IMG/VR virus record: IMGVR_UViG_3300020379_000218 | Coordinates: 32,001-96,000 of that record | DNA: 64,000 bases | Strand: one strand, 5' to 3' | Source: a virus | Lineage: Duplodnaviria; Caudoviricetes | In this document: one piece after another, positions 1-64,000 of the stretch | How positions within the stretch are numbered: the first letter of the stretch is position 1 | Layout: the number at the start of each line of letters is the position of its first letter | The notes under the pieces: model-generated | Told to the model about the DNA's origin: nothing | The model's input: only the letters and a program-made list of their open reading frames with translations | Database searches by the model: none | Translations under genes and position numbers: made by a program

Positions 1-2
1 AG

Positions 3-77
3 GCAAATGACATTATAAGAGTGATTGCTTCTCACGGAAATACTGATACATTTATTTCGGTATTAGAGAATACATAA
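3..77 (+). CDS. 3' end of an upstream gene (partial, ...DIIRVIASHGNTDTFISVLENT*), probably a small virion protein
   Basis: Open frame from the window edge to TAA at 75-77, followed by a late promoter. Confidence 0.5.
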   Translation, partial: ANDIIRVIASHGNTDTFISVLENT

Positions 78-89
78 GATTAAAATAGT

Positions 90-97
90 TATAAATA
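90..97 (+). promoter_or_regulatory. T4-type late promoter (TATAAATA)
   Basis: Exact gp55-dependent consensus in the intergenic gap before ORF 123. Confidence 0.75.
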
Positions 98-122
98 TAA
101 GAAAACGAAGAGGAAGAATTAG

Positions 123-620
123 ATGGCATTAGCATTACCAACAGGAGCTTCACAAGCAGTTGCCGTAGACGCAGCTGGTTTCCAAATCTCTAACGAATAT
201 GCTATGCACGCCCTTAACCGTGATGTTAATGGTCTTTTGATATACACAAAGACCAAATTAGATAGTAATGAGGAAGTGATTGTTAACAGCGGAGAAGGTT
301 TTGGATTTAATGGGTTTGAAGGACTTGCAATCGGTAAGGCAAGTGATGGAACAACCGTTCAGAATACACTACAAAGTGATTTTGACGAGAATACAGACGC
401 TCATTACCAAACTAACGCAAAGTTTAGAAAGTATCAACAGACAAGATTTGATCCGTTGAAACTTTTTTACTTTTTAAATGATGAAGGTAATCTTGTGGCA
501 AGGTATCAACAAGATTATACTTACGCCGCTAGTGAGACAGCAACTTCTACAACTGGAAGCAACTGGATCCCAAGTGGTGGAAACTATTATACCGCTAGTA
601 ATGTTAACAGGTACTTGTAA
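123..620 (+). CDS. Hypothetical virion/tail-associated protein
   Basis: 165 aa ORF with GAGGA SD, behind a late promoter, in the structural module. Confidence 0.7.
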   Translation: MALALPTGASQAVAVDAAGFQISNEYAMHALNRDVNGLLIYTKTKLDSNEEVIVNSGEGFGFNGFEGLAIGKASDGTTVQNTLQSDFDENTDAHYQTNAKFRKYQQTRFDPLKLFYFLNDEGNLVARYQQDYTYAASETATSTTGSNWIPSGGNYYTASNVNRYL

Positions 621-643
621 AAATTAAATAGAGAGAGATAAAA

Positions 644-4360: not shown

Positions 4361-4387
4361 ATAATAGTTAAATAGGAAGATATAAAA

Positions 4388-7621: not shown

Positions 7622-7629
7622 TATAAATA
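7622..7629 (+). promoter_or_regulatory. T4-type late promoter (TATAAATA)
   Basis: Exact consensus immediately after the stop codon, upstream of ORF 7658. Confidence 0.75.
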
Positions 7630-18835: not shown

Positions 18836-19675
18836 ATGGCCGTTAATCATTACTTTCAAGGCGGCGATGGCATAGGTAGTCAAAATGAGAAAAGATTAAT
18901 AGAAGATTTAATCGTTGAAAATTTAAAAATCTATGGTCACGCTGTTTACTATTTACCTAGGACTCTAGTCAATAGAGATTTAATTTTAGGCGAAGATTCT
19001 GCGTCTAGGTTTGATGAGTCATATCTAGTTGAAATGTACTTTGAAACGGTTGAAGGATTCCAAGGCGAACAAGAAATAATTAGTAAGTTTGGTTTAGAAG
19101 TTAGAGACGATACAACTTTTGTAATTGCGAAGAGAAGATTCCAAGAACAAGTTGATGACCCAGCAAACTTAATGGTAGATGGTAGACCTAACGAAGGTGA
19201 TGTAATTTACTATCCTTTAATGAATAAGTTTTTTGAAGTTGCGTTTGTAGAAGACCAGGAACCTTTCTTTCAATTAGGAAACTTACCTGTATACAAATTA
19301 AGATGTAAAACTTTTGAATATTCTAGTGAAGAATTTAATACTGGTGTTTCTGATATTGATACTGCTGATGATAGAAAATCACTTGATACAAGTTTACAAC
19401 ATCAATTCAGACTTGAAGATGGTACATTAAATCAATCTTCATACAATGGTTTCTTATTATTAGAAACAGGAGACAAACACGGTAATCCACAATACTTAAT
19501 TAATGAAGACTATGACGACACTACTACAGACGGAGACGCCGCTACAAGTATACAAACTAAATCTGTATATGCTGATAATTTAGATTTAGATACTGAAGCA
19601 GGTTTTGATACTGCAACGGTTTCAGATGACATATTAGACTTTACAGAAAGCAACCCATTTGGAGATGTTAAATAA
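18836..19675 (+). CDS. gp14: Neck protein gp14
   Basis: YYLPRTLVN, SKFGLEVRD, RPNEGDVIYYP, PFFQLG, C-terminal NPFG. Confidence 0.92.
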   Translation: MAVNHYFQGGDGIGSQNEKRLIEDLIVENLKIYGHAVYYLPRTLVNRDLILGEDSASRFDESYLVEMYFETVEGFQGEQEIISKFGLEVRDDTTFVIAKRRFQEQVDDPANLMVDGRPNEGDVIYYPLMNKFFEVAFVEDQEPFFQLGNLPVYKLRCKTFEYSSEEFNTGVSDIDTADDRKSLDTSLQHQFRLEDGTLNQSSYNGFLLLETGDKHGNPQYLINEDYDDTTTDGDAATSIQTKSVYADNLDLDTEAGFDTATVSDDILDFTESNPFGDVK

Positions 19676-20487
19676 TGTTCGGTACACATTTTTATAACGA
19701 AGGATTAAGAAAGTTAACTATTGCGTTTGGTCAAATCTTTAATAAGATTGTAGTACAAACTAAAGACGCAAATGATAGTGTTGTAAAAAGATTTACGGTG
19801 CCTCTTGCATATGCACCAAAAGAAAAGTTTATTACAAGATTAACTCAACAACCAGATTTACAAGACCAACAATTTTCAACTATATTACCTCGTATGGGTT
19901 TTGAAATATCAGGTATACAATATGACCCTAGTAGAAAATTAAATAAACTACAAAAGACAAGAACACAAACAGATGAAGGTAATACATCTAATCAACAAAA
20001 CAAGATGAAGTTTAATTATACTCCTGTACCATATAATATAACTTACTCTTTGTTTATTTTTACTGCTACTGCTGAAAATGGTTTACAAATTTTAGAACAA
20101 ATAGTTCCGTACTTTCAACCTGATTATACGGTTACTATAAATATGATACCAGACTTAAATATCAAGCGTGATGTACCTATTGTTATAGGTGATATTAATT
20201 ACGAAGATAATTATGATGGTGACTTTAATACAAGAAGAGCAGTAATTTATACAATTAATTTTACTGCAAAAACTTATCTATATGGTCCGTCAACACATCA
20301 AGGTGTTGTAAGAAAAGTACAATCAGATTTAGGTTCGGATCCTGTAAATAAAGCAAGAGAAGAAAGAATTGTAATTACACCAAATCCATCTTCTGCAAAA
20401 CCAGGTGATGACTTTGGATTTACGACAACTATATCATTCTTTAATGATGGTAAGAAATATGACCCATCAACAGGAAGTGATACATAA
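19675..20487 (+). CDS. gp15: Tail sheath stabiliser/tail terminator gp15
   Basis: MFGTHFYN, VPLAYAPKEKF, LPRMGFE, QILEQIVPYFQP. Confidence 0.92.
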   Translation: MFGTHFYNEGLRKLTIAFGQIFNKIVVQTKDANDSVVKRFTVPLAYAPKEKFITRLTQQPDLQDQQFSTILPRMGFEISGIQYDPSRKLNKLQKTRTQTDEGNTSNQQNKMKFNYTPVPYNITYSLFIFTATAENGLQILEQIVPYFQPDYTVTINMIPDLNIKRDVPIVIGDINYEDNYDGDFNTRRAVIYTINFTAKTYLYGPSTHQGVVRKVQSDLGSDPVNKAREERIVITPNPSSAKPGDDFGFTTTISFFNDGKKYDPSTGSDT

Positions 20488-20499
20488 TGAGAGGCGAAA

Positions 20500-21132
20500 A
20501 TGAAACGAGAAGATGTATTAGTAATAGACAATGTTTTACCAGAAGTTGTAAATAATAGTTTCTGTCAAAACATTTATAGATTAGGTTATATTATATCAAT
20601 GGATATATTGCCTAGTCAAACAGACAATAAAGGTATTATGAAAGACGATAATACTTTTTCATCAATGCAAATGGTTCATAGAGTATACTTGCATAACGAA
20701 CCAGCAAATATGCCAAAAAATCCTGCAATGGAACCAGTAAAACATTCTTTATCTGAAATGGTTGGTAAAGCAGGTCTGTTAACTAAAGACTTTGATAAAG
20801 TAGAATTGTTAAGAGCAAAATTTAATTTAATGTTTCCACATCCTGACTTTAAAGATGGTCAGTATAATATGGCACATATTGATGATGAACAAGAAGAGCA
20901 TTTAGTTTGTATTTACTATCCTGAAGATACAGATGGTGATACAATATTGTTCAATGAGTTTTTTAATAAAGATAAGAAACCAGAAAAACTAACTATTCAT
21001 AAGAGGGTTACACCAAAAGCAAATCGTTGTGTAATATTTAATGGTTGGAGATTTCACGCAAGTAGTAATCCAGTTGCATATAATAAACGAATAGTTTTAA
21101 ATACAAATTTTAGGATAACAAACAATGGGTAA
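20500..21132 (+). CDS. 2OG-Fe(II) oxygenase-like protein
   Basis: HID...GDTILF...PKANRCVIFNGWRFHAS...R (HxD...H...R pattern). Confidence 0.75.
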   Translation: MKREDVLVIDNVLPEVVNNSFCQNIYRLGYIISMDILPSQTDNKGIMKDDNTFSSMQMVHRVYLHNEPANMPKNPAMEPVKHSLSEMVGKAGLLTKDFDKVELLRAKFNLMFPHPDFKDGQYNMAHIDDEQEEHLVCIYYPEDTDGDTILFNEFFNKDKKPEKLTIHKRVTPKANRCVIFNGWRFHASSNPVAYNKRIVLNTNFRITNNG

Positions 21133-30732: not shown

Positions 30733-32073
30733 ATGTACTTATCTGAAAACTACCAAAAAAAGTGGCAGCCAGTATTAGAGCATCCTGATTTACCAAAAAT
30801 CACGGATACTTATAAACGAGCTGTTACCAGTGTTATCCTTGAGAACCAAGAGAAAGCACTAAAAGAAGACGCTCAGTTTATGACTGAAACTGCGCCTACT
30901 AACTCAACAGGTTCTTCAATCGCTAACTGGGATCCAATTTTGATTTCATTAGTAAGAAGAGCAATGCCAAACCTTATCGCTTACGATATTGCTGGCGTTC
31001 AACCTATGAGCGGTCCTACTGGTCTTATATTTGCAATGAGAAGCAGATACAAAGCTCAGGACGGTACTGAAGCATTATTTGATGAAGCAGAATCACAATT
31101 CTCAGCTGCAGGAACTAAAGCAAACATTCCTGGTTCAGCTGGTACTTCTTCTGCTGGAGAAACTAACCCTGCTGTACTTAACGACTCATCACCTGGAGCA
31201 TACACTGCTGAAGGTGGAATGTCTACTGCTAACGCAGAAGCATTAGGAGACGGTTCAACATCTGGATACGAGCAATTTGCTGAAATGGCATTCTCAATTG
31301 AGAAGTCAACGGTAACTGCTAAGTCAAGAGCATTGAAAGCCGAGTACACAATGGAACTTGCACAAGACCTTAAAGCTATTCACGGTTTAGACGCTGAGTC
31401 TGAACTTGCGAATATTCTTTCTGCTGAAATCCTTGCTGAAATCAATAGAGAAGTTGTAAGAACTATCTATGTAAATTCAGAAAAAGGTGCTCAGACTGAC
31501 ACAACTACTGCTGGTATCTTTGATTTAGATACTGACTCAAACGGTAGATGGTCTGTTGAAAGATTTAAAGGACTTATGTTCCAATTAGAAAGAGACGCTA
31601 ACGCTATCGCACAAAGAACAAGAAGAGGAAAAGGTAACATAATTATCTGTTCTTCTGATGTTGCTAGTGCATTACAAATGGCTGGTGTTTTAGACTATAC
31701 ACCTGCATTAAACAACAATTTATCTGTTGATGACGCAGGAAACACTTTTGCTGGAGTATTAAACGGCAGATTTAAAGTGTACATTGATCCATATTCAGCG
31801 AACCAAGCTAGCAAACAATTCTATGTTGTTGGTTACAAAGGTACTTCACCTTATGACGCTGGTATGTTCTACTGCCCTTATGTACCATTACAAATGGTTA
31901 GAGCAGTTGGTCAGGACACTTTCCAACCGAAAATCGGTTTCAAAACTAGATACGGCCTACAAGCAAATCCTTTTGCTGAAGCTTCTTCTAGTACAGACGC
32001 TGTAATTGACGGTGCTGGTGCTGCTAACGCTAACAGATACTACAGAAAAGTACAAATCGTTAACCTTGCGTAA
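30733..32073 (+). CDS. gp23: Major capsid protein gp23
   Basis: LVRRAMPNLIAYDIAGVQPMSGPTGLIFA, KSRALKAEY, FQPKIGFKTRYG. Confidence 0.98.
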   Translation: MYLSENYQKKWQPVLEHPDLPKITDTYKRAVTSVILENQEKALKEDAQFMTETAPTNSTGSSIANWDPILISLVRRAMPNLIAYDIAGVQPMSGPTGLIFAMRSRYKAQDGTEALFDEAESQFSAAGTKANIPGSAGTSSAGETNPAVLNDSSPGAYTAEGGMSTANAEALGDGSTSGYEQFAEMAFSIEKSTVTAKSRALKAEYTMELAQDLKAIHGLDAESELANILSAEILAEINREVVRTIYVNSEKGAQTDTTTAGIFDLDTDSNGRWSVERFKGLMFQLERDANAIAQRTRRGKGNIIICSSDVASALQMAGVLDYTPALNNNLSVDDAGNTFAGVLNGRFKVYIDPYSANQASKQFYVVGYKGTSPYDAGMFYCPYVPLQMVRAVGQDTFQPKIGFKTRYGLQANPFAEASSSTDAVIDGAGAANANRYYRKVQIVNLA

Positions 32074-37208: not shown

Positions 37209-38270
37209 ATGAAGATAGCGTTATTGAATGATACTCACTTCGGTGCGAGAAGTGATAGTCCTGCATTTATCAAATATTTTAACCGGTTTTATGACGAGAT
37301 ATTTTTCCCATACCTAGAAGAACACAAGATAACAACACTTATTCATTTAGGTGATGTTGTTGATAGAAGAAAGTTTATTAACTTTAATACAGCACATAAC
37401 TTTCAAAATAAATTCTGGAAAAGACTATGGGATATGAAAATAGATACTCATATTATACTTGGCAACCACGATACTTATTATAAGAATACAAACTCTATTA
37501 ATAGTATGCAACAATTGATTACTACTTTTGATGGTATCAATGAACCATTTATATATGAGAAACCAAAGACGGTTGAGTTTGATGGTCTACCTATACTATT
37601 CGTTCCTTGGATATGTCCAGAGAATGAAGAAGAAAGTCTATACGAAATAGAAAATTCACAAGCACAAATTTGTATGGGTCACCTTGAAGTTAAAGGTTTT
37701 GAAATGCACAAAGGACACTTCCAAGAACACGGACTAGAGATAGACTTATTTAAAAGATTTGACAAAGTATTATCTGGTCACTATCATAGAAAATCAGATA
37801 ATGGTACTATCTACTATCTAGGTACACAATACGAAATTACTTGGTCAGATTATCAATGCCCTAAAGGTTTTCATATATTTGATACAGATACTAGAGAACT
37901 TACAAGAGTGCCTAATCCTATTAATATGTTTAAGAAGATAACATATAACGATAAGAAAAATAACTATGCAAATATGGATATATCTGAATACGAAGATTGT
38001 TTTGTAAAAGTTATAGTAGAAGAAAAACAAGATGTAAATATGTTTGGTGAGTTTATAGACAGATTACATAATGAGATACATACACACGAAGTTAATGTCA
38101 TAGAAGATAGTTATAATATAAATTCAACTGCCAATATTAATATTGTAGACCAAGGTGAAGATACTTTAACCTTCTTACAAAATTATATTAATAGTTTAGA
38201 TACTGAACTAGATAAGCACAAGATGAATACAATAGTTAAAGACTTATATAATGAGGTGCAAGATAAGTGA
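37209..38270 (+). CDS. gp47: Recombination endonuclease subunit gp47 (Mre11/SbcD-like)
   Basis: DTHFG, HLGDVVDRR, GNHD, SGHYH. Confidence 0.95.
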   Translation: MKIALLNDTHFGARSDSPAFIKYFNRFYDEIFFPYLEEHKITTLIHLGDVVDRRKFINFNTAHNFQNKFWKRLWDMKIDTHIILGNHDTYYKNTNSINSMQQLITTFDGINEPFIYEKPKTVEFDGLPILFVPWICPENEEESLYEIENSQAQICMGHLEVKGFEMHKGHFQEHGLEIDLFKRFDKVLSGHYHRKSDNGTIYYLGTQYEITWSDYQCPKGFHIFDTDTRELTRVPNPINMFKKITYNDKKNNYANMDISEYEDCFVKVIVEEKQDVNMFGEFIDRLHNEIHTHEVNVIEDSYNINSTANINIVDQGEDTLTFLQNYINSLDTELDKHKMNTIVKDLYNEVQDK

Positions 38271-39982
38271 TAATTTTTCATAATATAACCTGGAAGAATT
38301 TTCTTTCAACAGGCAATACACCAATCAGCGTAAATTTAAGAGAAGCACCTACGACATTAATCATAGGTAGTAATGGGTCAGGTAAATCAACTTTACTAGA
38401 CGCATTGTGTTTTGCTCTCTTCAATAAACCTTTTAGAATTATTAAGAAAGACCAGATGGTAAATACTATCAACAATGCTGATACACTTGTTGAAGTTTAT
38501 TTTAGTATAGGTCCTAAAAAGTATAAAGTACGAAGAGGTATTAAACCTAACATATTTGAAATATACCAAGACGGCATTTTATTAAATCAGGATGCCTCTT
38601 CTATAGATTATCAAAAGTACCTAGAACAAAATATAATGAAACTAAATTACAGGTCATTTTGTCAAGTTGTAATTTTAGGTTCTTCTTCATATGAACCATT
38701 TATGAAGATGAGAGCAAGTTATAGGCGTGATGTTATTGAAGAGATACTTGATATTAAAGTATTTGCAAGTATGAACTTATTATTAAGAAGTAAACAACAA
38801 GACTTAACAAAAGAGATTACTACATTAAGACACCAAGTAGACTTGATTGAAAACAAAGTTGACTTACAAGAGAAACATTATAATGAATTACAAGGTAGAG
38901 ATACAGACGCTATATCTAAAAAGAAAGAAGACATAGAGAAAGCACAAGAACATAAAAGAGATTATATGTTGCGTATCAGTAGTCTTAATGAAGAGATTAC
39001 AAAGAACAAACTAAAACTAGAAGGCACAGAAGAAACTAAAAGTAAATTTCTTCAATTACAGAAACTAGAAAGTAAGATTGATACAAACTTAAAGACACAT
39101 AAAAAGGCACTTAAATTCTTTGAAGAGAATACTAATTGTCCTGTTTGTACACAAGAACTTGAACCTGGTTTCAAACAAGAGAAAGTAAACGAAGAGAAGG
39201 CTGCTGTAGATAAGTTAAACGAAGGTTATAAAAAACTATTAACTGAAATTACTAATACAGAAGAGAAGATATTAAATATAGACAAAGTATCTGAAACTAT
39301 TAGAAGTATAGAAACTAATGTTGCAAAACTAAACACAAGTGTTGATGAACTTAAAAGACATAGTGATAGAATACAAAACGAGATTGACTTGTTATCTGTA
39401 GAGGATGCTTCAGGCCTAAATATAAAAGAAGAGATTGTTAGACTAAAACAAGAGTTAGTCAAAACAAAAGAAGATAGAGACAAAGTTATTGATGAGAAAA
39501 AATATGTTGATGTATTAAGACAGATTGTAGACGATAGTGGTGCTAGAGCACAGATTATTAAGAAGTATATACCAGTTATGAATACACTTATTAATCAGTA
39601 TCTACAATCAATGGACTTCTTTATATCTTTCCATTTAGATGAAGAGTTTAAAGAAACGGTTAAGAGTAGACATATGGATTCTTTTAACTACAATAATTTT
39701 AGTGAAGGTGAAAAGATGAGAATAGACTTGTCATTACTATTCACTTGGAGAAGTATTGCGAAGATGAAGAACTCCGTCAATACTAACTTATTAATACTTG
39801 ATGAGATATTTGATAGTAGTTTAGATGGTCAAGGAACAGATGATTTCTTTAAGATTATCAAAACACTTACAAAAGAAAATATCTTTATCATATCGCATAA
39901 AGGAGATATAATGTTTGACAAGTTTACAAATATAATTAAATTTGAGAAATACCAAAACTTTACGAGGTTAGAAAATGTCTAA
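38267..39982 (+). CDS. gp46: Recombination endonuclease ATPase gp46 (Rad50/SbcC-like)
   Basis: GSNGSGKST, CPVC zinc hook, FSEGEK, LILDEIFD. Confidence 0.96.
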   Translation: MIIFHNITWKNFLSTGNTPISVNLREAPTTLIIGSNGSGKSTLLDALCFALFNKPFRIIKKDQMVNTINNADTLVEVYFSIGPKKYKVRRGIKPNIFEIYQDGILLNQDASSIDYQKYLEQNIMKLNYRSFCQVVILGSSSYEPFMKMRASYRRDVIEEILDIKVFASMNLLLRSKQQDLTKEITTLRHQVDLIENKVDLQEKHYNELQGRDTDAISKKKEDIEKAQEHKRDYMLRISSLNEEITKNKLKLEGTEETKSKFLQLQKLESKIDTNLKTHKKALKFFEENTNCPVCTQELEPGFKQEKVNEEKAAVDKLNEGYKKLLTEITNTEEKILNIDKVSETIRSIETNVAKLNTSVDELKRHSDRIQNEIDLLSVEDASGLNIKEEIVRLKQELVKTKEDRDKVIDEKKYVDVLRQIVDDSGARAQIIKKYIPVMNTLINQYLQSMDFFISFHLDEEFKETVKSRHMDSFNYNNFSEGEKMRIDLSLLFTWRSIAKMKNSVNTNLLILDEIFDSSLDGQGTDDFFKIIKTLTKENIFIISHKGDIMFDKFTNIIKFEKYQNFTRLENV

Positions 39983-40865
39983 AGATTTAAAAGATAATCC
40001 TACTACTGCTGTTCATACAGGCGACAGACAAAGAATGACGGTTGCTGAAGAAGAAAAATTTAAAGATGATATAATGAAACAAGCAGAAGAACAGATTAAA
40101 GCAGGTGATGTTGAAATTGCAAAAGAAGGTGAGTGGGTTGACCACGCCAACATCAAAGAAAAACTAGAAAAGATGAGAGACGAAGATAAGGCAAAAGAAG
40201 GTGTCGTAGAGGATATGACAGATAAGAATAAGTCTGTTGAAATCAGAAAAGGCATTGACCCTAAATCGTTTCAGTACGAATTATTACCACCACAGGATCC
40301 TAGAGTTAGACAACCTGTAGCACCTTTCAAAGATGAAATGCTAGAAGAGTATGGTCTAAAAAGTAGACAAGAACTTGTTGATGGTATGTTTGCTCTTATG
40401 CACAAATATGGTGGTATCGGTTTGAGTGCGATACAAATAGGTTTACCATTTAATATGTTTGTTGCAGGAGACCACGAATCAATAGAAAAGGGGTTAAAGA
40501 TAGCGGCCTTTAATCCTGTTATTATACAAGCAAGTGAAGAAGAAGTACTAATGAAAGAGGGATGCTTGACTTTTCCTTTCTTATTTGTTAGTATTAAAAG
40601 ACCTCGTAAATGTGTTATGAAATACGAAGATGAGAACAAAGATTTAAAAGAAGCACATTTAGATGGAATGATGAGTAGAGTTTGTCAACACGAATACGAC
40701 CATCAAACAGGTACATTGATGGTACAGAAAGTTAGTAAACTAAAACTAGACTTAGCATATAAAAAAGCAGAAAAGGAGATGAAGAAGTGGAGACGCTATC
40801 AGGAAGCAATCAAGTCCAGTCAGCCAGTGAAAATATCAAACCCTGGCAAAAAGGATTTGAGTTAA
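39975..40865 (+). CDS. def: Peptide deformylase with a roughly 100-aa charged N-terminal extension
   Basis: GIGLSAIQIG, EGCLT, QHEYDH motifs. Confidence 0.92.
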   Translation: MSKDLKDNPTTAVHTGDRQRMTVAEEEKFKDDIMKQAEEQIKAGDVEIAKEGEWVDHANIKEKLEKMRDEDKAKEGVVEDMTDKNKSVEIRKGIDPKSFQYELLPPQDPRVRQPVAPFKDEMLEEYGLKSRQELVDGMFALMHKYGGIGLSAIQIGLPFNMFVAGDHESIEKGLKIAAFNPVIIQASEEEVLMKEGCLTFPFLFVSIKRPRKCVMKYEDENKDLKEAHLDGMMSRVCQHEYDHQTGTLMVQKVSKLKLDLAYKKAEKEMKKWRRYQEAIKSSQPVKISNPGKKDLS

Positions 40866-41989
40866 GTTATTTAAAAGATTTAGAAAAGAGATTTAATTCT
40901 TACAACGAATATGCTCAGCACGAAATGAGCAAGTTTAAAAAGAATAATATAGCAGACGCCTTGTCAAAAGATGAGATACAACTTCTAGGCAAAGGTTTAA
41001 TACACTTCTCAAAAGTAAAAGTAAAATCAAACATCTTTATGTTCCCAGGTGTACTAATCGGTACTAAACTACCTGGCGATATTCATATTAAACATTTAGG
41101 TTATACAGAAGAATTTGATAAAAGAAATATTATCACTACATTAATGGAAGACGCTCAATACACTAATAACAATGTGTGGTTGTTTATTAACGAAGAGAGT
41201 GGACCTGATAAACATATTGCAACAGAAACAGGATTTGAGAAAGTCGGTACGAAGTATAATTCAGTTGCAGATATTATAGGTGTTTATTTTAGACACGCTA
41301 GTAATGTATTAGAAGATAGACAACACCCTAAAGTACCTGTCTATGAGAACTATACATTGAAACCTATGAATGTATCATTTAAAGATATTACAACACAACT
41401 TGCAAAACAACTACACGAAATGGAAGTTGAGTTTACTAATCACTATTCAAACTACAATAAAGCAAAGTCTTGGAGTGCAATCTCATTAAGAGGTTATAAA
41501 CCAGACTATAAGTTTATTACAAAACCTGTAGAAATGAATAAGAAGTGGAAAGAAGAAAACAAAGATGAACATTTTGAATTACAAGATACAGACTGGAGAC
41601 AGAAGTTTCCTTTAGTAGAAAAGATATTAGATGTATTTGAAACAGAAATACATAGAGTTAGATTTATGAATTTGAAACCAGGTGGTGGAGAATTACAAAG
41701 ACATACAGACCAAGTAGACCCAGACATAGGAATTGCAGATGGTAGATTAATGAGAATACATATACCTATCAAAACAAATCCAGATGTAGAGTTTACAAGT
41801 TGGTCTATATCAGGTTCTAAAGTGATGACTAATATGGAAGAAGGAAGTTGCTGGTACCTAGATATTAGAAAACCACATATGGCAATTAACAATGGTGAAG
41901 ACTGGAGAACACATTTAGTTATTGATGTAGTTGCTAATGATAAAGTGAGAAGTTTATTTAATGCTGACGCCCATAGAAAAATACGATAA
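40787..41989 (+). CDS. Fusion of a GNAT-like N-terminal domain and an Asp/Asn beta-hydroxylase-family 2OG-Fe(II) oxygenase
   Basis: C-terminal W.AISL, RVRFMNLKPG, HTD, RIHIPIKTN, KPHMAINNG...RTHLVID; N-terminal GFEKVG GNAT-like motif (weaker). Confidence 0.72.
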   Translation: METLSGSNQVQSASENIKPWQKGFELSYLKDLEKRFNSYNEYAQHEMSKFKKNNIADALSKDEIQLLGKGLIHFSKVKVKSNIFMFPGVLIGTKLPGDIHIKHLGYTEEFDKRNIITTLMEDAQYTNNNVWLFINEESGPDKHIATETGFEKVGTKYNSVADIIGVYFRHASNVLEDRQHPKVPVYENYTLKPMNVSFKDITTQLAKQLHEMEVEFTNHYSNYNKAKSWSAISLRGYKPDYKFITKPVEMNKKWKEENKDEHFELQDTDWRQKFPLVEKILDVFETEIHRVRFMNLKPGGGELQRHTDQVDPDIGIADGRLMRIHIPIKTNPDVEFTSWSISGSKVMTNMEEGSCWYLDIRKPHMAINNGEDWRTHLVIDVVANDKVRSLFNADAHRKIR

Positions 41990-42860
41990 TATATATTACA
42001 AACGAGACGATTTGTTTGCACCATATGGAGATGTCAATGGTGGTAAAATGCGACAGACAATTGCCTTGTTTGAAAAGTATAAAGATAAGATAAGAAATGA
42101 ACACAATAACGGAGTTATACAATCTGTTTCAGTACATAGTCCTACCGCTAGTGTTATCAGTAGAGTTGCGAAAGAGTATGGTTTTAAATCTATATTTGCA
42201 GTTGGTGGTACTAAACCTGAAACATTACAGAAACGCCATATAATGCACCTTGCACAATACTATGGTGGCGAGATAAGAATAGTTGCAGGACACGGTATCA
42301 ATAGTGTACTTGCAAAGAGAACTAAAGATATTATAGAAAAAGAAAAATATTTCTATACTTCTTTTGATAAATGGATTATGGAAGAACCTGAATTAATGTT
42401 AGAAACAAATGGCGAACAAGTGCAAAATCTACCAGATGAAATAGACAATTTAGTTATGAGTTGTGGTGTAGGTATTCAGATGTCTGCTGTTATGTATGGA
42501 TTAAAGAAGTATAATAAGAAAGTAAAAAGAGTTATCGGTGTCGGTGTAGGACCTGATAGAACAAAGAATATAAGAAGTTATTTTGGATTAGAACAGAATG
42601 ATTATCCTTTTGAATTTCACACACCAAAAACAAGTTATAGTACTCCTCTGAAAACTACAATAACAAATCCTAACTACACGGATTCAGAAGAGTACTATCC
42701 ATCAGAAAAATCATTTATGTTAGATGACTTATACGAAGCAAAAGCACATAAATGGATGTGTGAGAATATAAACATTTACGAAGGTACAAATGTCTTCTGG
42801 TGTGTCGGTAGAAGATTAAATCAAAACGAAGTACACGATATAACTGGAGGTATACAATGA
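41961..42860 (+). CDS. Fold-type II PLP enzyme (ACC deaminase/D-cysteine desulfhydrase-like)
   Basis: YYKRDDL...NGGKMRQ PLP lysine; SCGVG phosphate loop; LDDLYEAKA. Confidence 0.8.
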   Translation: MLTPIEKYDNIYYKRDDLFAPYGDVNGGKMRQTIALFEKYKDKIRNEHNNGVIQSVSVHSPTASVISRVAKEYGFKSIFAVGGTKPETLQKRHIMHLAQYYGGEIRIVAGHGINSVLAKRTKDIIEKEKYFYTSFDKWIMEEPELMLETNGEQVQNLPDEIDNLVMSCGVGIQMSAVMYGLKKYNKKVKRVIGVGVGPDRTKNIRSYFGLEQNDYPFEFHTPKTSYSTPLKTTITNPNYTDSEEYYPSEKSFMLDDLYEAKAHKWMCENINIYEGTNVFWCVGRRLNQNEVHDITGGIQ

Positions 42861-43396
42861 AATACGATATGACAACTTTCTTTAAAGATGGTTTCTATAC
42901 TGGTGATGTAGATATAAATGTACAACTATTTGATGATATAAAGTTTCCTAATATAGACTACAATCCTGAAGACTTAAAACTACCTGATAATGTAAAACAA
43001 GAGATTAAGAAAGTACAAGAACAACTAGAAGAAGTTATATCAGAAACATATCCTAAATTTGAACTTACAGAAGAACCTGGTTTATGGAACGGAGTAACCA
43101 AAGAGAATAATGAATTTCACAATGACTTTGTTGCAGGAGATAAATTCAATTCAAACATATTAGTATACCTAGATGAAGGTAACGATATGAATGAAAACTA
43201 TATTGAGATTGCAGGTGAAGACATTTTAGATAAAGATGGCACACCATATGGTGTAAGTAAGTGTAGAATATTCTGTAGACCAGGACAATTTGTCTGGTTA
43301 AATCAATCACCTCAATTTGAACATAGAGCAAACAACGGAAGTGGGAATAGAAGATTGATACACTTTGCATACTATATACCGGAGATTAAAAAATGA
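42857..43396 (+). CDS. 2OG-Fe(II) oxygenase-like protein
   Basis: FHND...ILVYLD...FEHRA...RR (HxD...H...R). Confidence 0.7.
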   Translation: MKYDMTTFFKDGFYTGDVDINVQLFDDIKFPNIDYNPEDLKLPDNVKQEIKKVQEQLEEVISETYPKFELTEEPGLWNGVTKENNEFHNDFVAGDKFNSNILVYLDEGNDMNENYIEIAGEDILDKDGTPYGVSKCRIFCRPGQFVWLNQSPQFEHRANNGSGNRRLIHFAYYIPEIKK

Positions 43397-44088
43397 AAGA
43401 TGTAATTAATAAGTTTCATCACGGTGACGCTTTTGATATATTTCCTAAAGTACCAGATAGAAGTATTGACTTAACATTTACAAGTCTACCTGATATATCA
43501 CAAGGTCCGTGGGGCAAAGACATAGAACAATACCAAGAGTTTCAAAATAGAAGTTGCGACCAGATGGCAAGAATTACGAAAGATGAAGGCTTCGTAGTTA
43601 TATCGCAAACAGATAGAAAGATTAACGGAGAGATATTACCTAATCATATAACATATTACAATGCAATGTTAAGAAATGGTTTTGCATTGAAAGACTATAA
43701 GATTATGGTAAGAAATCATCCTGTTGATAAAAGAGATATGTATTACTTCAACTATCAACACACACTTGTATTTACTAAAAAAGGTACAATCAAAAGAAGT
43801 GGTGATTGGTTAAAGAACATATTAGTATATGATACAAAGAGATTAGGAAATGTAAAAGGTCCTTTTAATCTCTATGTATGGAACGATAACTTTATTAAAC
43901 TTGTGGTTGATTATCTATCAAAAGAGAATGAAATAGTATTTGACCCATTTGCAGGTAGTGGAATAGTACCTTGGATTGCAAAAGAAATGAGAAGACGATA
44001 TATAGGTATTGAACTAGATAAAGAGGTTTTTGATAAATCTTACTTTAATCGTTTAGACCTGCTTGACAAGTTTGGGAAAGTAGTATAG
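43393..44088 (+). CDS. Amino (N4/N6) DNA methyltransferase, beta class, atypical catalytic motif
   Basis: IDLTFTSLPD (variant of TSPPY) N-terminal; VFDPFAGSG SAM motif; YIGIEL. Confidence 0.8.
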   Translation: MKDVINKFHHGDAFDIFPKVPDRSIDLTFTSLPDISQGPWGKDIEQYQEFQNRSCDQMARITKDEGFVVISQTDRKINGEILPNHITYYNAMLRNGFALKDYKIMVRNHPVDKRDMYYFNYQHTLVFTKKGTIKRSGDWLKNILVYDTKRLGNVKGPFNLYVWNDNFIKLVVDYLSKENEIVFDPFAGSGIVPWIAKEMRRRYIGIELDKEVFDKSYFNRLDLLDKFGKVV

Positions 44089-52878: not shown

Positions 52879-52882
52879 GCTA

Positions 52883-56995: not shown

Positions 56996-57010
56996 CAATT
57001 AACATATAAT
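56982..57010 (+). promoter_or_regulatory. Consensus sigma70-type promoter
   Basis: TTGACA-17 bp-TATAAT. Confidence 0.8.
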
Positions 57011-57019
57011 GGAGATATT

Positions 57020-57319: not shown

Positions 57320-57684
57320 TGAGTGATAGTGTCCAAACAAAGGATACTATAACAATTCATTTCATTAGTAAAGACGGAAATAAACAAGAAGTTATAGTAC
57401 CACCAGGTTATACAATTATGGAGGCAGCAAGGACTTTTGCTGAACCATCAATTGATGAAATACCAGGCGATTGTGGTGGGTGTACTGCTTGTGGAACTTG
57501 CCATATTAATATTAAAGAGGACATTGACAAAGTGGGTCGGGTAGAGTATAATAGTTTAGAAAATGAGATATTAGAAACAAATATGGAATATGATAGAATG
57601 TATTCCAGATTAGGTTGTAATGTTATGTTAGAGAAAAAACATAATGGTTTAAAAATATATTTGAGAAGTATGGAGTCCGTATAG
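57319..57684 (+). CDS. fdx: [2Fe-2S] ferredoxin, adrenodoxin/putidaredoxin type
   Basis: CGGCTACGTCH...SRLGC. Confidence 0.9.
   Translation: MSDSVQTKDTITIHFISKDGNKQEVIVPPGYTIMEAARTFAEPSIDEIPGDCGGCTACGTCHINIKEDIDKVGRVEYNSLENEILETNMEYDRMYSRLGCNVMLEKKHNGLKIYLRSMESV
57524..57552 (+). promoter_or_regulatory. Consensus sigma70 promoter inside fdx, upstream of gp43
   Basis: TTGACA-17 bp-TATAAT. Confidence 0.65.
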
Positions 57685-60176
57685 TGAATTTTTATAAAGA
57701 TGTAATTGAACATAGAGGTAAGTTATTAGTCCGTGGTATACTAGACGGCAAAGAATTTAAAGAGAAGGTAGCATTTAGACCAACTCTATATGCACAAACA
57801 CAAGAGAATACAAATCATAGAACTTTACAAGGTAACAATCTAAAACCTATTACCTTTGATAGTATCAGGTCAGCAAGAGATTTCAGAAGAAACTATGCAA
57901 CTTCTAATAGTCCGTTGTATGGTAATGATAGATGGCACTTTCAATATATCAGTAAAGAATATCCAGAGAATATTGAGTTTGATAAGAACTTAATTAAAAT
58001 CTTTACTATTGATATTGAGACAACTGCTGATGGTGGTTTTCCTGATGTAGAAAATCCGACAGAAGAGATACTATGTTTGACTATTAAAAATCAATCTAAC
58101 AAACAAATTATTACTTGGGGTACAAGACCATATCTTGCAAAACAAGAAAATGTAACCTATATAGAATGTAAATCAGAAAAACAATTACTGATGGAGTTTT
58201 TTAAATTCTGGATGAAGAATTATCCTGATGTTATTACAGGTTGGAATACTAAATTTTTTGATATACCATATCTATGTAATAGAACTAAAAGACTTGTAGG
58301 TGACAAAGTTATTAATAAGTTATCGCCTTGGGGTTTGATTGAAGAAGAGAAACTAACCGTAAGAGGTAGACAACAAACTATATTTAAGATTATGGGTATA
58401 TCTAATTTAGATTACCTAGACTTATATGTAAAATTTATTCCGACTAGACAAGAAAGTTATAAACTTGATTATATCGCAAAGGTAGAATTAGGTAGTGATG
58501 GTAAAGATAATAACCCATACGATACTTTTAGAGAATGGTATACGAATGACTTTCAATCTTTTGTTGATTACAATATCAAAGATGTTGAACTCGTTGACCA
58601 ACTAGAAGATAAGTTAAGATTGATTGAACTTATCTTAACAATGGCCTATGAGGCAAAGATTAATTATACAGATGTATTTTCAGAAGTTAGACTTTGGGAT
58701 ACATTGATTTACAATCATCTATTAAAAGAGAATATACATATCCCACCTCGTACTGATAATGTTAAAGAAGAAAAATATGTCGGTGCATATGTTAAACCAC
58801 CACAAGTCGGTCAACATAAATGGATTGTATCTTTTGATATTAACTCACTATATCCTCACTTGATTATGCAGTATAATATTAGTCCTGAAAAGATGATTGG
58901 TGTTAAACCTAATGGTATATCTGTAGACAAGTTATTGAAACACGCTACACCTCTTACACATTTACAAACACAAGGTGCAACTATCACACCTAATGGTGCA
59001 ATGTTTAAAACAGATAGTCAAGGTTTCTTACCGAAGATTATGGAAAGTATGTACAATGATAGAGTGCATTACAAACAATTAGAATTTAAAGCAAAACAAG
59101 AATATCAAAAAACAAAAGACCCAATCTATGAAAAAGAAATATCTCGTTGTCATAATATTCAATGGGCGAAAAAGATTTCTTTGAATAGTGCCTATGGTGC
59201 AATCGGTAATCAGTATTTTAGATTTTACAATGTCAATCAAGCGTCAGCGATTACAACTGCTGGGCAGTTTATTATTCAGTATGTTGAACAAAAAGTAAAT
59301 GAATTGATGAATGATATACTACAGACAAAAGGTAAGAAAGATTATATTGTTGCGTCTGATACAGATTCAATTTACCTTTGTTTAGATAGATTAGTAGAAA
59401 AGGTATGTAAAGATAAAACAAAAGAACAGAAGTTAAACTTTGTTGATAAGGTTGCAAAACAAAAGATAGAACCATTTATTGAAAAATGTTTTGAAGAAGT
59501 ATCTAGTTATACAAATGCCTTTCAACAGAAGATGGTTATGAAACGAGAAGTTATCGCAGACAAAGGTATCTGGACTGCCAAGAAAAGATATATGTTGAAT
59601 GTGTTAGACGAAGAAGGTTTTAGATATGAAGAACCTAAACTAAAGATTATGGGTATTGAGGCAGTAAAATCTTCAACACCAGAAGTCTGTAGAAAAGGTA
59701 TTAAAGAAGCAATCAGAATTATTATGAACAAAGATGAAGACGCATTACATAATTATATTTCAAACTTTAAAGAAGAGTATTTGAAATATGAACCTGAACA
59801 GATTGCGTTTCCTAGAAGTTGTAATAATTTAAGAAAGTATTTTAGTCCTAGTGATATATTCATTAAAGGCACACCTATACATATTAAAGGTAGTCTGATA
59901 TATAACTGGCACTTAAAAAATCAAAACCTAGACCAGAAGTATCCTTTGATACAAGAAGGTGATAAAATTAAATTTATATTGTTGAAAGAACCTAATCCTT
60001 TCAAGTTTAATGTATGTGCTTATCTATCTACATTACCTAGAGAGTTTAATCTGAAAGACTATATAGATTACGAGGTTCAATTTGAAAAGACTTTCCTTGA
60101 CCCAATGAGATTTATACTTGGTGCGATAGGTTGGAATGCAGAACCTCAAGCAAGTCTGGAGGCTTTCTTCGGATAA
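57684..60176 (+). CDS. gp43: Family B DNA polymerase gp43
   Basis: DIET exonuclease, SFDINSLYP, KISLNSAYG, SDTDS, KKRY. Confidence 0.98.
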   Translation: MNFYKDVIEHRGKLLVRGILDGKEFKEKVAFRPTLYAQTQENTNHRTLQGNNLKPITFDSIRSARDFRRNYATSNSPLYGNDRWHFQYISKEYPENIEFDKNLIKIFTIDIETTADGGFPDVENPTEEILCLTIKNQSNKQIITWGTRPYLAKQENVTYIECKSEKQLLMEFFKFWMKNYPDVITGWNTKFFDIPYLCNRTKRLVGDKVINKLSPWGLIEEEKLTVRGRQQTIFKIMGISNLDYLDLYVKFIPTRQESYKLDYIAKVELGSDGKDNNPYDTFREWYTNDFQSFVDYNIKDVELVDQLEDKLRLIELILTMAYEAKINYTDVFSEVRLWDTLIYNHLLKENIHIPPRTDNVKEEKYVGAYVKPPQVGQHKWIVSFDINSLYPHLIMQYNISPEKMIGVKPNGISVDKLLKHATPLTHLQTQGATITPNGAMFKTDSQGFLPKIMESMYNDRVHYKQLEFKAKQEYQKTKDPIYEKEISRCHNIQWAKKISLNSAYGAIGNQYFRFYNVNQASAITTAGQFIIQYVEQKVNELMNDILQTKGKKDYIVASDTDSIYLCLDRLVEKVCKDKTKEQKLNFVDKVAKQKIEPFIEKCFEEVSSYTNAFQQKMVMKREVIADKGIWTAKKRYMLNVLDEEGFRYEEPKLKIMGIEAVKSSTPEVCRKGIKEAIRIIMNKDEDALHNYISNFKEEYLKYEPEQIAFPRSCNNLRKYFSPSDIFIKGTPIHIKGSLIYNWHLKNQNLDQKYPLIQEGDKIKFILLKEPNPFKFNVCAYLSTLPREFNLKDYIDYEVQFEKTFLDPMRFILGAIGWNAEPQASLEAFFG

Positions 60177-60316
60177 TGACGACATACGATTTATTTACAA
60201 TCTGGTTGTTATGTCTGATAGGTTTTCAGATAGGAGAAAGGATAGCACACACAAGAATATCTTTGGCGACTTTCTTATTATGTGTTATATTAACTAAAAT
60301 ATTATTGATGAGTTAA
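60176..60316 (+). CDS. Small hydrophobic protein
   Basis: TAATG coupling to gp43; two hydrophobic stretches. Confidence 0.5.
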   Translation: MTTYDLFTIWLLCLIGFQIGERIAHTRISLATFLLCVILTKILLMS

Positions 60317-60319
60317 CAT

Positions 60320-60811
60320 ATGAAATTATTTAAAGACAAGACAGATGACTTTTTTAGATGGTTAAAAGGAACCGAACTAGTTGAACTAGATGATATAGAT
60401 GTATCAGAGGATCCTGTAAGACCAGAGTTAACATTAGGTTGGCGTATCTCTAAAGGTAGAAAAATATTTGGATTAAAGTACGAAGAAAATATAGAAGGTA
60501 TAATTTGTATTGCGTTTACAAATGACATACCATCAAATGTAAAAGAATTAGATATGATGTCTGAACTTGCAGACCTAAAGAACGAGAAACGAATTGCAAT
60601 TGCATATACGGTATGGTCTCGTAAGAGAGGTGCAGGTAAAGAGATTATCAGTAAGGTATTAGAATATGCAAAAGCAAACTATATTGAAAGAGTGATTACA
60701 TTATCACCTCTTACACCTATGGCAACACACTTTCATATTCGTAATGGTGCAAAACAAATATCAATCAATAAGGAAACGCAGAACTTTGAGTATAAACTTT
60801 CCAGTAAATAA
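60320..60811 (+). CDS. Conserved phage protein, GNAT-like
   Basis: DPVRPEL, AYTVWS..RGAGK, TLSP.T.MA..FH.RNGA (acetyl-CoA-binding-like motifs). Confidence 0.6.
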   Translation: MKLFKDKTDDFFRWLKGTELVELDDIDVSEDPVRPELTLGWRISKGRKIFGLKYEENIEGIICIAFTNDIPSNVKELDMMSELADLKNEKRIAIAYTVWSRKRGAGKEIISKVLEYAKANYIERVITLSPLTPMATHFHIRNGAKQISINKETQNFEYKLSSK

Positions 60812-61334
60812 AAAGTATAAGGTAATATATGCTGACCCACCTTGGTCATTTAAATCATTTAGTCCTAAAGGTGATGACAGAAATCCTAATCAGCATTATC
60901 AAACATTAGAACTTAAAGATATAACAGACTTACCTGTAAAACAAATTGCAGATGACAATTGTACTTTATTAATGTGGGTTGTAGACCATAGTTTAGATTT
61001 AGCGTTTGATGTTATAGACGCCTGGGGTTTCCAATACAAGACGGTAGGATTTACTTGGGCAAAAACAAATAAGAATAAACTAGGTTTCTTCACAGGTTTA
61101 GGATACTGGACAAGAGGTAATCCTGAAATGTGTTTACTTGCAACAAAAGGTAAACCTAAAAGAAAATCAAAATCAGTACCACAATTAGTCGTATCAAATA
61201 GAGAACGACATAGTAAAAAACCAGATATTATGTATCAACACATAGAAAATTTATTATCAGGTCCTTACATTGAACTTTTTGCTAGACAAAGAAGAGAAGG
61301 TTGGGATGCCTGGGGAAATCAAATAGAGGCTTGA
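60744..61334 (+). CDS. MT-A70-family adenine methyltransferase
   Basis: IYADPPW, LLMWV, WGF.Y, F.W.K, HSKKP, IELFAR, WGNQ; true start may be TTG 60786. Confidence 0.9.
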   Translation: MVQNKYQSIRKRRTLSINFPVNKKYKVIYADPPWSFKSFSPKGDDRNPNQHYQTLELKDITDLPVKQIADDNCTLLMWVVDHSLDLAFDVIDAWGFQYKTVGFTWAKTNKNKLGFFTGLGYWTRGNPEMCLLATKGKPKRKSKSVPQLVVSNRERHSKKPDIMYQHIENLLSGPYIELFARQRREGWDAWGNQIEA

Positions 61335-61359
61335 CAATGGCGATATTTTATAGTATATT
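61331..61359 (+). promoter_or_regulatory. Sigma70-type promoter
   Basis: TTGACA-17 bp-TATATT. Confidence 0.6.
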
Positions 61360-61409
61360 ACTCTTAACAATTATATTTTTAATACCAATAAGTTTACTAA
61401 TAATGTGGA

Positions 61410-62645
61410 ATGATGAAGACCCTAAACCTTAAAGATTACGCAGATGAAAATGGTTTGCCTATTATGGACACTATCCAGTTTGATAGATGGACAGAAGAAC
61501 TAGGTAAAGAAAAATTTAGAGAATTACTAGCAGAATATATTGCTACTGAAAGACCAAAGTTTCCTCTCAAACAAATATCATATGAAGATATGAGAAAAAG
61601 TATTATTGACTTATCAAAGTTTGATACTTCAAAGATATGTACGCCTAAAGAACAGATTGAAAAGAAAGTATTTGAGAAGTATGATGATTACGAATATGGT
61701 TTTGATAAGTATGGTCTAGGATTGATTGACGCTCCTAGTACATATAATATATCATCTAATTATTTTCATCAACATTTAAGATTAAATTGTAGTAGTTATG
61801 GTTTCAAAGCACCTATAGATGTATGGCAAAATGGTAATGCAAAAGATGTATGGCGTTGTCTAGGTCCTATATGGCGTGGTATTAATAGTGAAAGACATTT
61901 AAAAGAAGGTACTTATATTAGTGCATTTAGATTAGGTACATATATTGCAACACAATTTAAACCTGTTGTTGCGAAAACTTTATATGATATGACAAATGCA
62001 AGAACGGTATTAGATACCTCTTGTGGTTGGGGTGATAGACTTGCAGGTTTCTTTTCTAGTAGTGCAGAAGAATATTATGGTTGCGACCCAAACCCTAACA
62101 CATATAAACAATATATGAAACAGATTGAAGAGTATAGTAAATTCTTTCCTAATAAAAAAGTTAAGATATATAATTGTGGTGCAGAAGATTTACCTTATGA
62201 TGAATTACCAGATATAGATTGTGCCTTTACAAGTCCACCATACTTTAGTACTGAACAATATAATAAAGGTGGTGATAAAGAAGAAAATCAATCGTGGTTT
62301 AAATTCAACGAATACGAGAAGTGGAGAGACGACTTCTATTTACCTGTTGCAGAAAAGACTATGAGTAAATCAAAGTTTATGTTAGTCAACATTATGGATC
62401 CAAAGATTAAGAATGTTAGATATAGGTCAAGTGATGAATTGATAAATAGTCATAGAGAAAAGTTTTTAGGTCAAATTGGTATGGTTATTATGCAAAGACC
62501 TCAAGGTAATGCTAAGTTTAAAACTAAAGAAGAACTGAACGAATTTATGGCAATGAAATATATTGAGAATGTTTGGTGTTTCGGTCCTAAAGATTATGAT
62601 TTCTTCTCTTCTAGTAGAAAAGGTACATTAGAAAACTTTTTATGA
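61410..62645 (+). CDS. SAM-dependent DNA methyltransferase, alpha order, SPPY; paralogue of 44687
   Basis: TQFKP, LDTSCGWGDR, FTSPPYF. Confidence 0.85.
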   Translation: MMKTLNLKDYADENGLPIMDTIQFDRWTEELGKEKFRELLAEYIATERPKFPLKQISYEDMRKSIIDLSKFDTSKICTPKEQIEKKVFEKYDDYEYGFDKYGLGLIDAPSTYNISSNYFHQHLRLNCSSYGFKAPIDVWQNGNAKDVWRCLGPIWRGINSERHLKEGTYISAFRLGTYIATQFKPVVAKTLYDMTNARTVLDTSCGWGDRLAGFFSSSAEEYYGCDPNPNTYKQYMKQIEEYSKFFPNKKVKIYNCGAEDLPYDELPDIDCAFTSPPYFSTEQYNKGGDKEENQSWFKFNEYEKWRDDFYLPVAEKTMSKSKFMLVNIMDPKIKNVRYRSSDELINSHREKFLGQIGMVIMQRPQGNAKFKTKEELNEFMAMKYIENVWCFGPKDYDFFSSSRKGTLENFL

Positions 62646-62959
62646 TAGGAATGATAAAAGAAAAAGAATATAACGATTTAAAACCATACTGGGATTATCA
62701 AAGAAAAGTTGCATACAATAAAGAACAAGTGTTCAAAATGGTTGCAGGCTTTGAAGGTAGAGTATTATCCCACGATGGACCTGTTTCATTAGACGAGTTT
62801 AGAACAAACTTGTGGAACAAGATACCATCAGAAGAGTATGAAGACCCACCGAAAGATTGGGTACCGGAAGATGAGAATTTACGATTAGAAAACGAAGTAT
62901 ACAAGCCTGGTCGTAAAGTTATTCTCAAAGCAAAACAAGCACAGGCTGTTGACAAATAA
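62642..62959 (+). CDS. Hypothetical protein
   Basis: 105 aa with ATGA coupling. Confidence 0.65.
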   Translation: MIGMIKEKEYNDLKPYWDYQRKVAYNKEQVFKMVAGFEGRVLSHDGPVSLDEFRTNLWNKIPSEEYEDPPKDWVPEDENLRLENEVYKPGRKVILKAKQAQAVDK

Positions 62960-62986
62960 GCAACATTAGTATAATATGGAGTAATT

Positions 62987-64000
62987 ATGAGTGATTTTTT
63001 AAAAGATATAATTAAAGAGACTGGCAACGAATATGCCACACTTGCAAGTGAAGGTGTGGATGCTGGTGATGTATCAAACTTTGTTGATACAGGTTGTTAT
63101 TCATTAAACGCCTTATTATCTGGTACCATTCACGGTGGTATGCCTGGTAATAAAATTACAGCAATCGCTGGCGAGGCTGCAACAGGAAAGACTTTCTTTG
63201 CATTAGGTATCTGTAAACATTTTTTAGATAACGATAAAGACGCAGGTGTTATTTACTTTGAAAGTGAAAGTGCCGTATCTAAAAATATGATTGAAGATAG
63301 AGGTGTAGATAGTAAAAGATTTGTCGTAGTACCTGTAGCAACCGTACAAGAATTTAGAGCTCAAGCAATCAAAGTTGTAGACAAGTATCTGGAACAACCA
63401 GAAGATAAAAGAAAACCTATTATGTTTGTATTAGATAGTTTAGGTATGTTATCTACTACAAAAGAAATGCAAGACACAGCAGAAGGTAAAGAGACTAGAG
63501 ATATGACAAGGTCTCAAATTGTGAAGTCTACATTTAGAGTATTAACTTTGAAACTTGGTAAAGCAAACATTCCTATGATTATGACCAATCACACCTATGA
63601 TGTTATTGGTTCAATGTTCCCTCAAAAAGAAATGGGTGGTGGTAGTGGTCTTAAATATGCTGCCTCATCTATCATCTATCTTGGTAAGAGAAAAGTAAAA
63701 GACGGCACAGAAGTTGTCGGTAATATTATTCATTGTAAAAATTACAAGTCAAGGTTGACAAAAGAAAATGCACAAATTGATGTTATGTTAACTTATGAAA
63801 AAGGCCTTGACAAATATTATGGTCTATTAGATATTGCAGTTGAAGAAGGTATCTTCAAAAAAGTATCTACTAGAATTGAAACGCCTGATGGTAAAAAAGT
63901 ATTCGGTAAGAATATAATTGAAAATCCTGAAGAGTATTTTACAAAAGAAGTATTAGAGAAGATAGATGAAGCAACAAAACGAAAATTCCTCTACGGATAA
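62987..64000 (+). CDS. uvsX: RecA-like recombinase UvsX
   Basis: [38 protein letters not shown]; ends with TAA at 64000. Confidence 0.95.

Follow-up and report, generated by a model that had tools for sequence, protein, structure and literature searches.

We describe a sequence signature that runs through a 64,000-nucleotide stretch of a tailed-phage genome (Duplodnaviria; Caudoviricetes; IMG/VR record IMGVR_UViG_3300020379_000218, positions 32,001 to 96,000; hereafter the window), in which restriction-type sites survive only where they overlap a CC/GG step, together with two methyltransferase genes, M44 and M61, that are the best candidates for writing a protective mark at that step. The window is part of a 109,563-bp viral contig (G000), about 59% complete, that is present in marine sequencing runs from several studies. 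Its capsid protein gp23 is 78.9% identical to that of Pelagibacter phage Mosig, 74.6% to that of Methylophilales phage Melnitz and 71.5% to that of HTVC008M, and its capsid and core genes lie nearest these three phages, which places it among the pelagiphage-like T4 myoviruses (Kyanoviridae). M44 and M61 lie in two intervals bounded by conserved genes, slots A and B (Table 1), and their neighbours are replication genes and small open reading frames (ORFs) of no assigned function.

Table 1. Features of the window discussed in the text (aa, amino acids).
Feature	Position	Strand	Remarks
Genome-wide signature: restriction-type sites only where they overlap a CC/GG step	1..64000	none	Holds over the whole 109,563-bp contig
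M61, SPPY amino-methyltransferase, 411 aa	61410..62645	+	Slot B, DNA polymerase to uvsX interval; preferred candidate CC writer (putative)
M44, SPPY amino-methyltransferase, 394 aa	44687..45871	+	Slot A, gp46/peptide deformylase to 778-aa peptidase
N6_N4 methyltransferase-like protein, TSLPD replacing SPPY	43393..44088	+	PF01555 E 1.6e-19
AspH-type hydroxylase, pyridoxal phosphate (PLP) enzyme and 179-aa ORF	40787..43396	+	Lineage-restricted cluster
DPPW adenine-methyltransferase-like ORF beside M61	60744..61334	+	62% identical to annotated adenine methyltransferase of Mosig; patchy in relatives
gp46	38267..39982	+	Left marker of slot A
DNA polymerase	57684..60176	+	Left marker of slot B; matches annotated polymerases of Mosig and HTVC008M
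uvsX recombinase	62987..64000	+	Right marker of slot B

We call a site protected when its C is followed by C or its G is preceded by G. By this definition every copy of GTNAC (140), GATC (18), GATGC/GCATC (12) and ACNGT (145) in the window is protected, and CATG is absent. The same holds for the whole contig, where the protected fraction is 249/249 for GTNAC, 28/28 for GATC, 18/18 for GATGC and GCATC together and 262/262 for ACNGT. A first-pass annotation, made by eye, had proposed that one rule covers these five motifs; all 12 sites that it cited read as it described, and the rule extends further, to TCNNGA (144 of 145 copies in the contig) and GATATC (4 of 4). CATG, ACGT, TCGA and CGCG, in which the C cannot precede another C, do not occur in the contig at all. 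About ten kinds of restriction target have been erased from this genome except for the copies that overlap CC/GG. The rule can be read in codon choice, as had also been claimed: His before a G-initial codon is encoded 117 times by CAC and never by CAT, Thr-Val is always ACG or ACC followed by GTN, and GAT-GC is present only after G.

Shuffles that preserve the protein and its codon usage served as the null model. They predict 179 unprotected copies of GTNAC, 148 of GATC, 128 of GATGC plus GCATC, 184 of ACNGT and 170 of TCNNGA, and, for sites that can never be protected, 204 of CATG, 201 of ACGT and 175 of TCGA; the number observed is zero for every motif examined in this way, with the single exception of one TCAAGA; a lone GTNAC scored as unprotected in the ORF-based comparison is an artefact of an ORF edge. 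Protected copies exceed expectation for GTNAC (237 vs 153), ACNGT (253 vs 149) and TCNNGA (139 vs 120) and fall below it for GATC (27 vs 104), and the control motifs GTAC, CTAG, TGCA, TCNGA and GTNNAC show no purge in the same comparison. The rule is exact under two null models, the shuffles rule out codon or amino-acid bias as its cause, and the loss of type II palindromes goes beyond codon and protein constraints, as is characteristic of restriction-site avoidance. CC steps occur about 56 times per kb, counting both strands.

All four bases occur 3′ of the rescuing CC; the protective context therefore consists of two letters, and longer motifs such as CCD, CCW or CCNGG are rejected for the same reason. 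For ACNGT taken alone a CG rule fits as well as the CC rule, and in the motifs that start with G the site C always follows A or T, which confines the test there to the 5′ C of CC. The first-pass annotation had assigned protection to that 5′ C, an assignment that depends on the absence of cCATG and cCGCG. Cytosine and its paired guanine are indistinguishable from sequence alone, and the safest statement would be that the CC/GG step as a whole is protective. A minor rule of GpC type is also present. CTNAG survives mainly as gCTNAG, with 39 protected copies and 9 unprotected against 162 expected, and in the complete relative G001 this second rule is near-absolute (1 unprotected CTNAG vs 188 expected). 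RGCY was considered as its motif and set aside, the base before rescued GCTNAG being mostly T or C, and GCGC was discounted as a rule motif on finding the same flank pattern in Melnitz. In the window itself every CTNAG has a G or a C flanking it on one side and CAGTG and CAGAG mostly follow C; GANTC and AGCT are down to about one third, with no clear rule.

Among about 130 related loci that we scored, many retain the CC condition though the sets of purged sites differ, and in the more distant ones the condition is only partial. The relatives that keep the rule are 76–89% identical in DNA to this phage. At four positions GTNAC has been kept in relatives through replacement of a G flank by a C flank on the opposite side, compared with 1/89 for control motifs, in counts for which the relatives are not independent; three other GTNAC positions lost the flank, two of them in a subclade with relaxed GTNAC and one probably through misalignment. 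Because there are zero exceptions among hundreds expected, even in relatives at this level of identity, and because swaps are compensatory, selection appears to be acting now. In a blind scan that set 16 dinucleotide rules against a fixed panel of restriction-type motifs, the CC rule came first in this phage (6 motifs), HTVC008M (6), G009 (7) and KVP40 (5), tied for first in G001, G010, G006 and Mosig, and was weak in Aeh1; it was not found in RB49, RB43, T4, 44RR, phiM12, S-PM2, P-SSM2, S-CAM8 or P-TIM40. Mosig has GATC only as GGATCC. Self-protected sites are retained by rule-following phages (GGATCC, 38 vs 12 expected), and GGATCC and GGTACC are both lost in RB49, RB43 and phiM12.

Synechococcus phage S-B43 provides a positive control, as its CmoX enzyme marks GC by nanopore sequencing and in vitro assay (PMC12783734). 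The blind scan returns a GpC rule for S-B43, with 5 protected copies of CCGG and none unprotected against 146 expected, so that the step from a conditional purge to a dinucleotide mark is backed by one measured case. S-B43 also has one stray CC-type motif, GCATGC, and single motifs are therefore weak evidence. Melnitz follows a GpC rule for eight motifs: in this cultured phage (MZ577097; L329, L143, L392–L394) CCGG, CCNGG, GGNCC and five others are found almost only where they overlap GC, and its slot B holds a related SPPC C5 methyltransferase and a 328-aa neighbour; a GpC mark is predicted for it. Contigs with a pair of C5 enzymes, G007 and G008, give weak CC signals. A purge centred on adenine is seen in Staphylococcus phage Alsa_2 (L007, 1-50000), which encodes two methyltransferases and a Mom-like gene and in which GANNTC and CANTG occur almost only with AA/TT; the CANTG pattern is also present in G001, HTVC008M and Mosig, where it may reflect mere loss of CASTG.

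The two SPPY methyltransferases, which the first-pass annotation had listed among several possible writers, are the best candidates in this phage. M44 and M61 are only 26% identical and both are conserved, each with an intact motif I (D-x-S-x-G-x-G), and TSPPYF is invariant in 18 aligned sequences. SPPY is the usual signature of N4-methylcytosine (m4C) enzymes. Some 65 residues separate motif I from motif IV and an extra domain is N-terminal, an arrangement that is neither the alpha nor the beta order; PF01555 scores are 17–23 bits (cut-off 26.7), and a sequence search gave no homologue of solved structure for either protein. Both belong to large, nearly all viral families. The Atlas clusters of M61, mostly viral, are named N4-cytosine methyltransferase, as are the Atlas neighbours of M44, the names being automatic. 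An AlphaFold2 model of M44 (mean predicted local distance difference test score 78) has a class I S-adenosylmethionine (SAM) fold. RNA contigs cover the 44–64 kb region that includes both genes, but too patchily to demonstrate that either is expressed. Homologues of M44 (43–44% identity) are also found in SAR11 and Thioglobus single-cell contigs (L426, L427 and L428, equivalent to G011–G013); these carry a homologue of M44 and none of M61 and, being without phage markers and without purged sites, do not serve to separate the roles of the two genes.

Other genes of the region were considered as writers and rejected. The TSLPD methyltransferase is absent from L009–L011 and L026–L044, which retain the rule, and since relatives that lack this gene or the hydroxylase/PLP cluster at 40.8–44 kb keep it, neither is supported as the writer, contrary to earlier suggestions. 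The DPPW gene is likewise missing from rule-keeping loci. No PF00145 (C5 methyltransferase) match and no DruA/DUF4338 gene was found in the contig, itself 59% complete, or in complete G001. A search for the TGT family (PF01702) gave no match in G000, G001, G009, HTVC008M or Mosig; divergent DpdA3/4 were not searched for and part of the genome is missing from the contig. Several CxxxCxxC radical-SAM-like ORFs lie outside the window in a block specific to this lineage (L002:2716-11505; genome 18716-27505), for which tblastn gave no match in G001 or HTVC008M.

Comparison across relatives shows the two slots to be sites of enzyme exchange. In T4, hydroxymethylase and beta-glucosyltransferase genes lie between the DNA polymerase and uvsX, in the equivalent of slot B. 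HTVC008M lacks M44 and M61 and has DruA/DUF4338 proteins in both slots (AGE60440, AGE60456; L142:21117-22259 and L142:34536-35660), and proteins of this family are also present in Mosig (L141:14385-15683), G009 and G010. They model as Gcn5-related N-acetyltransferases (GNATs), the best match, a modest one, being the Mu Mom protein (Z 8.0, rmsd 4.1 over 169 aligned residues, at most 1 Z from FemA), and on the basis of these models are candidate new DNA acyltransferases that may hint at the function of DruA in Druantia. Elsewhere among the relatives the slots are filled either by paired C5 enzymes, next to genes resembling CmoA and asparagine synthase, or by a glycosyltransferase and one DruA protein. 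CmoX-like C5 enzymes with such neighbours in pelagiphage-like contigs (L253:27-3525, L257:2451-3931, L211:2980-4173 and 18922-20755) are candidate carboxymethylcytosine-type systems outside cyanophages. Lineages with SPPY or DruA genes follow the CC rule, as does at least one with C5 enzymes, and the rule also holds in KVP40, which has none of the three families. The Mosig record (MT647606; L141/L313) has a partial gene at either end and is missing uvsX and the helicase; it is therefore probably not complete despite its title, and gives no reading of slot B.

The rule is real and lineage-wide, and a phage-made mark at CC/GG is very probably its basis, judging from the sequence evidence. We propose the following mechanism, which is probable in outline and whose specific form, in which M61 or M44 places m4C at the first C of CC and so shields this phage, we consider an evenly balanced call. 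The m4C motifs of marine myovirus-like genomes and the chlorovirus enzymes specific for CC, both described below, lend it support from other systems. The CC/GG step would be marked genome-wide after replication, so that about one sixth of all C is modified, most likely as m4C at the first C of CC. The writer would be one of the two SPPY methyltransferases. M61 is preferred because the content of slot B tracks the main rule best, an M61 or DruA protein going with CC and the Melnitz C5 enzyme with GC, although this is a weak argument; M44 would be the second candidate, and possibly writes a second mark of GpC type. A mark on one strand would block many type II enzymes of the host, and selection by host restriction would then remove the sites beyond its reach and spare those that it covers, often through synonymous codons.

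Several observations weigh against this proposal. An outside C rescues CAGTG (17/19), CAGAG and some CTNAG, and tolerance of cCAGTG and cCAGAG is explained less well by methylation of the 5′ C alone. M44 and M61 occur together in all close relatives that could be tested, and the two genes are therefore not separable. G001 carries both and yet lacks CCGG (2 vs 135 expected), unlike this phage; an extra N6_N4 methyltransferase lies beside M61 there (G001:C1:143996-144949). Distant carriers of the M44 family (28–40% identity: Vibrio 2.058.O, DAC16, G014, G015) do not follow the rule, and HTVC008M, Mosig, G009/G010, G006 and KVP40 follow it without an SPPY homologue, which would require convergence of independent writers on a single step. 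In structure the M44 model matches best the RNA N2-methylguanine (m2G) enzymes TrmN and Trm11 (Z 18.0 and 17.9; 15–17% identity), and some 40% of the genome is missing from the contig. Taken together, slot swaps, SPPY-less rule-followers and rule-less M44 homologues indicate either that writers were swapped with the target kept or that a separate shared factor exists.

In the latter case the CC/GG mark would be real and its writer would be some other factor common to these T4-like phages, such as a guanine or backbone modification, with the slot enzymes writing other marks, e.g. GpC. This we judge unlikely, though it is the strongest of the alternatives. The same rule appears in lineages with SPPY, DruA-like or C5 enzymes or none of them (KVP40 and, weakly, Aeh1); in G009/G010 and Aeh1 sites are rescued by both doubled outer-base forms (gG..., cC...), as expected if the step itself carries the mark; most C5 enzymes of the slots have GpC specificity (PMC8256090); and about 40% of the genome is missing. 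On the other hand, tblastn found no gene confined to the rule-followers HTVC008M, G001, Mosig, KVP40 and Aeh1: phrog_2086, the one candidate, occurs as well in three phages without the CC rule (phiM12, RB43 and Melnitz), and the QueC-like ORF of KVP40/Aeh1 is not shared. A KVP40-like DpdA2 is reported to modify <0.1% of G (PMC10516641), and PF01702 was without a match in the five genomes searched for it, a search that divergent DpdA3/4 could escape. Far less probable is that M44 or M61 writes N2-methyl-G on the 3′ G of GG. The resemblance of the M44 model to TrmN and Trm11 and the equivalence of C and paired G in sequence speak for it, and the SPPY signature and the naming of the Atlas neighbours against it. 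The fold match is generic, moreover, hundreds of SAM enzymes scoring Z of at least 8, and single-molecule real-time (SMRT) sequencing of marine myoviruses saw m4C (PMC8919816).

It is also conceivable that the phage makes no mark, and that host nucleases spare sites beside GG/CC or the phage DNA is marked at CC by an enzyme of the host. The case for a CC/GG mark in this phage is drawn from its genome sequence, M44 homologues (43%) occur in the single-cell contigs of SAR11 and Thioglobus noted above, and the rule spans unrelated gene contents. We nevertheless regard this as improbable: an identical insensitivity to this flank would have to be shared by many unrelated specificities, RB49, RB43, phiM12, T4, 44RR and four cyanophages lack the rule, Pelagibacter methylomes show GANTC-type motifs, and phages that carry an enzyme of GpC type (Melnitz, S-B43) show a GpC rule instead. 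The rule could finally be left over from a mark that an ancestor wrote and this phage has ceased to write, which would explain its independence of present gene content and is very improbable in view of the lack of exceptions, the divergence of the relatives and the compensatory swaps; host-side and relic explanations together remain unlikely. We suggest only tentatively that a protective CC/GG mark is common to marine T4-like phages, the cultured HTVC008M among them, through three unrelated families (SPPY amino-methyltransferases, Mom-like GNATs and C5 enzymes) exchanged in two fixed slots or through a new chemistry reaching KVP40. Under either reading the target is readable from genome sequence alone.

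Conditional purging thus offers a sequence-only way to predict the target of a phage DNA modifier, with which the one measured case, S-B43, agrees. A protective role of dinucleotide marks has been doubted in published work (10.1101/2023.12.21.572611; PMC8919816); once site purging is counted, such marks would protect against restriction. A direct prediction for cultured phages is that sites of the GGATC/GATCC type should be resistant to cutting in the DNA of HTVC008M and KVP40. The candidate enzymes have a wider appeal, as a possible CC-specific m4C methyltransferase would be of use in chromatin mapping, and the DruA-like GNATs stand beside it.

Site avoidance and dinucleotide-specific viral writers are already known. 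In the literature searched, whose coverage is incomplete, we found no description of this conditional purge, nor of a T4-like CC/GG shield, a possible dinucleotide-specific m4C enzyme or three modifier families exchanging in two slots. As in classic restriction-site avoidance, short palindromes (CATG, ACGT, TCGA, CGCG) are lost, but here, for many motifs, whether a site is lost depends on a single dinucleotide step. The 7-deazaguanine DpdA systems (PMC10516641) likewise block restriction by marking G:C pairs in specific contexts; their TGT family has no match in the contig or complete relatives. Mu Mom, a GNAT DNA acyltransferase, resembles in predicted fold the DruA/DUF4338 proteins found in place of M44 and M61 among HTVC008M-like phages; unlike Mu, this contig has no such gene, and Mom modifies adenine whereas the rule is not adenine-centred. 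SMRT sequencing of marine Myoviridae-like genomes found m4C at CCNGG, CCWGG, GGWCC, GGHCC and RGCY with no enzyme matched, noted weak motif calling in small genomes and judged self-defence a minor role (Hiraoka 2022, PMC8919816). Those genomes resemble this one in being marine myoviruses with several orphan m4C methyltransferases each and motifs with a CC or GC core, although the motifs were reported as 4–5 bases.

The closest parallels are systems that act on dinucleotides. The C5-methyltransferase/TET systems are phage GpC writers (PMC8256090) and CmoX of S-B43 blocks HhaI (PMC12783734); like them, the proposed mark would be phage-encoded, post-replicative, dinucleotide-level and on cytosine. 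S-B43 and Melnitz show a conditional purge of the same kind, and the slots of relatives hold SPPC C5 enzymes with CmoA/CmoY-like neighbours. In contrast to these systems, the main context here is CC/GG rather than GC and the candidates are SPPY amino-methyltransferases. The chlorovirus methyltransferases M.CviPII and M.CviQIX methylate the first C of CC at C5 (PMC9636781). They differ from M44 and M61 in chemistry, in belonging to a eukaryotic virus, in M.CviPII being paired with a nicking enzyme and in lacking homology to either protein, but they are viral enzymes with the same predicted target base, from a family that has both GC- and CC-specific members.

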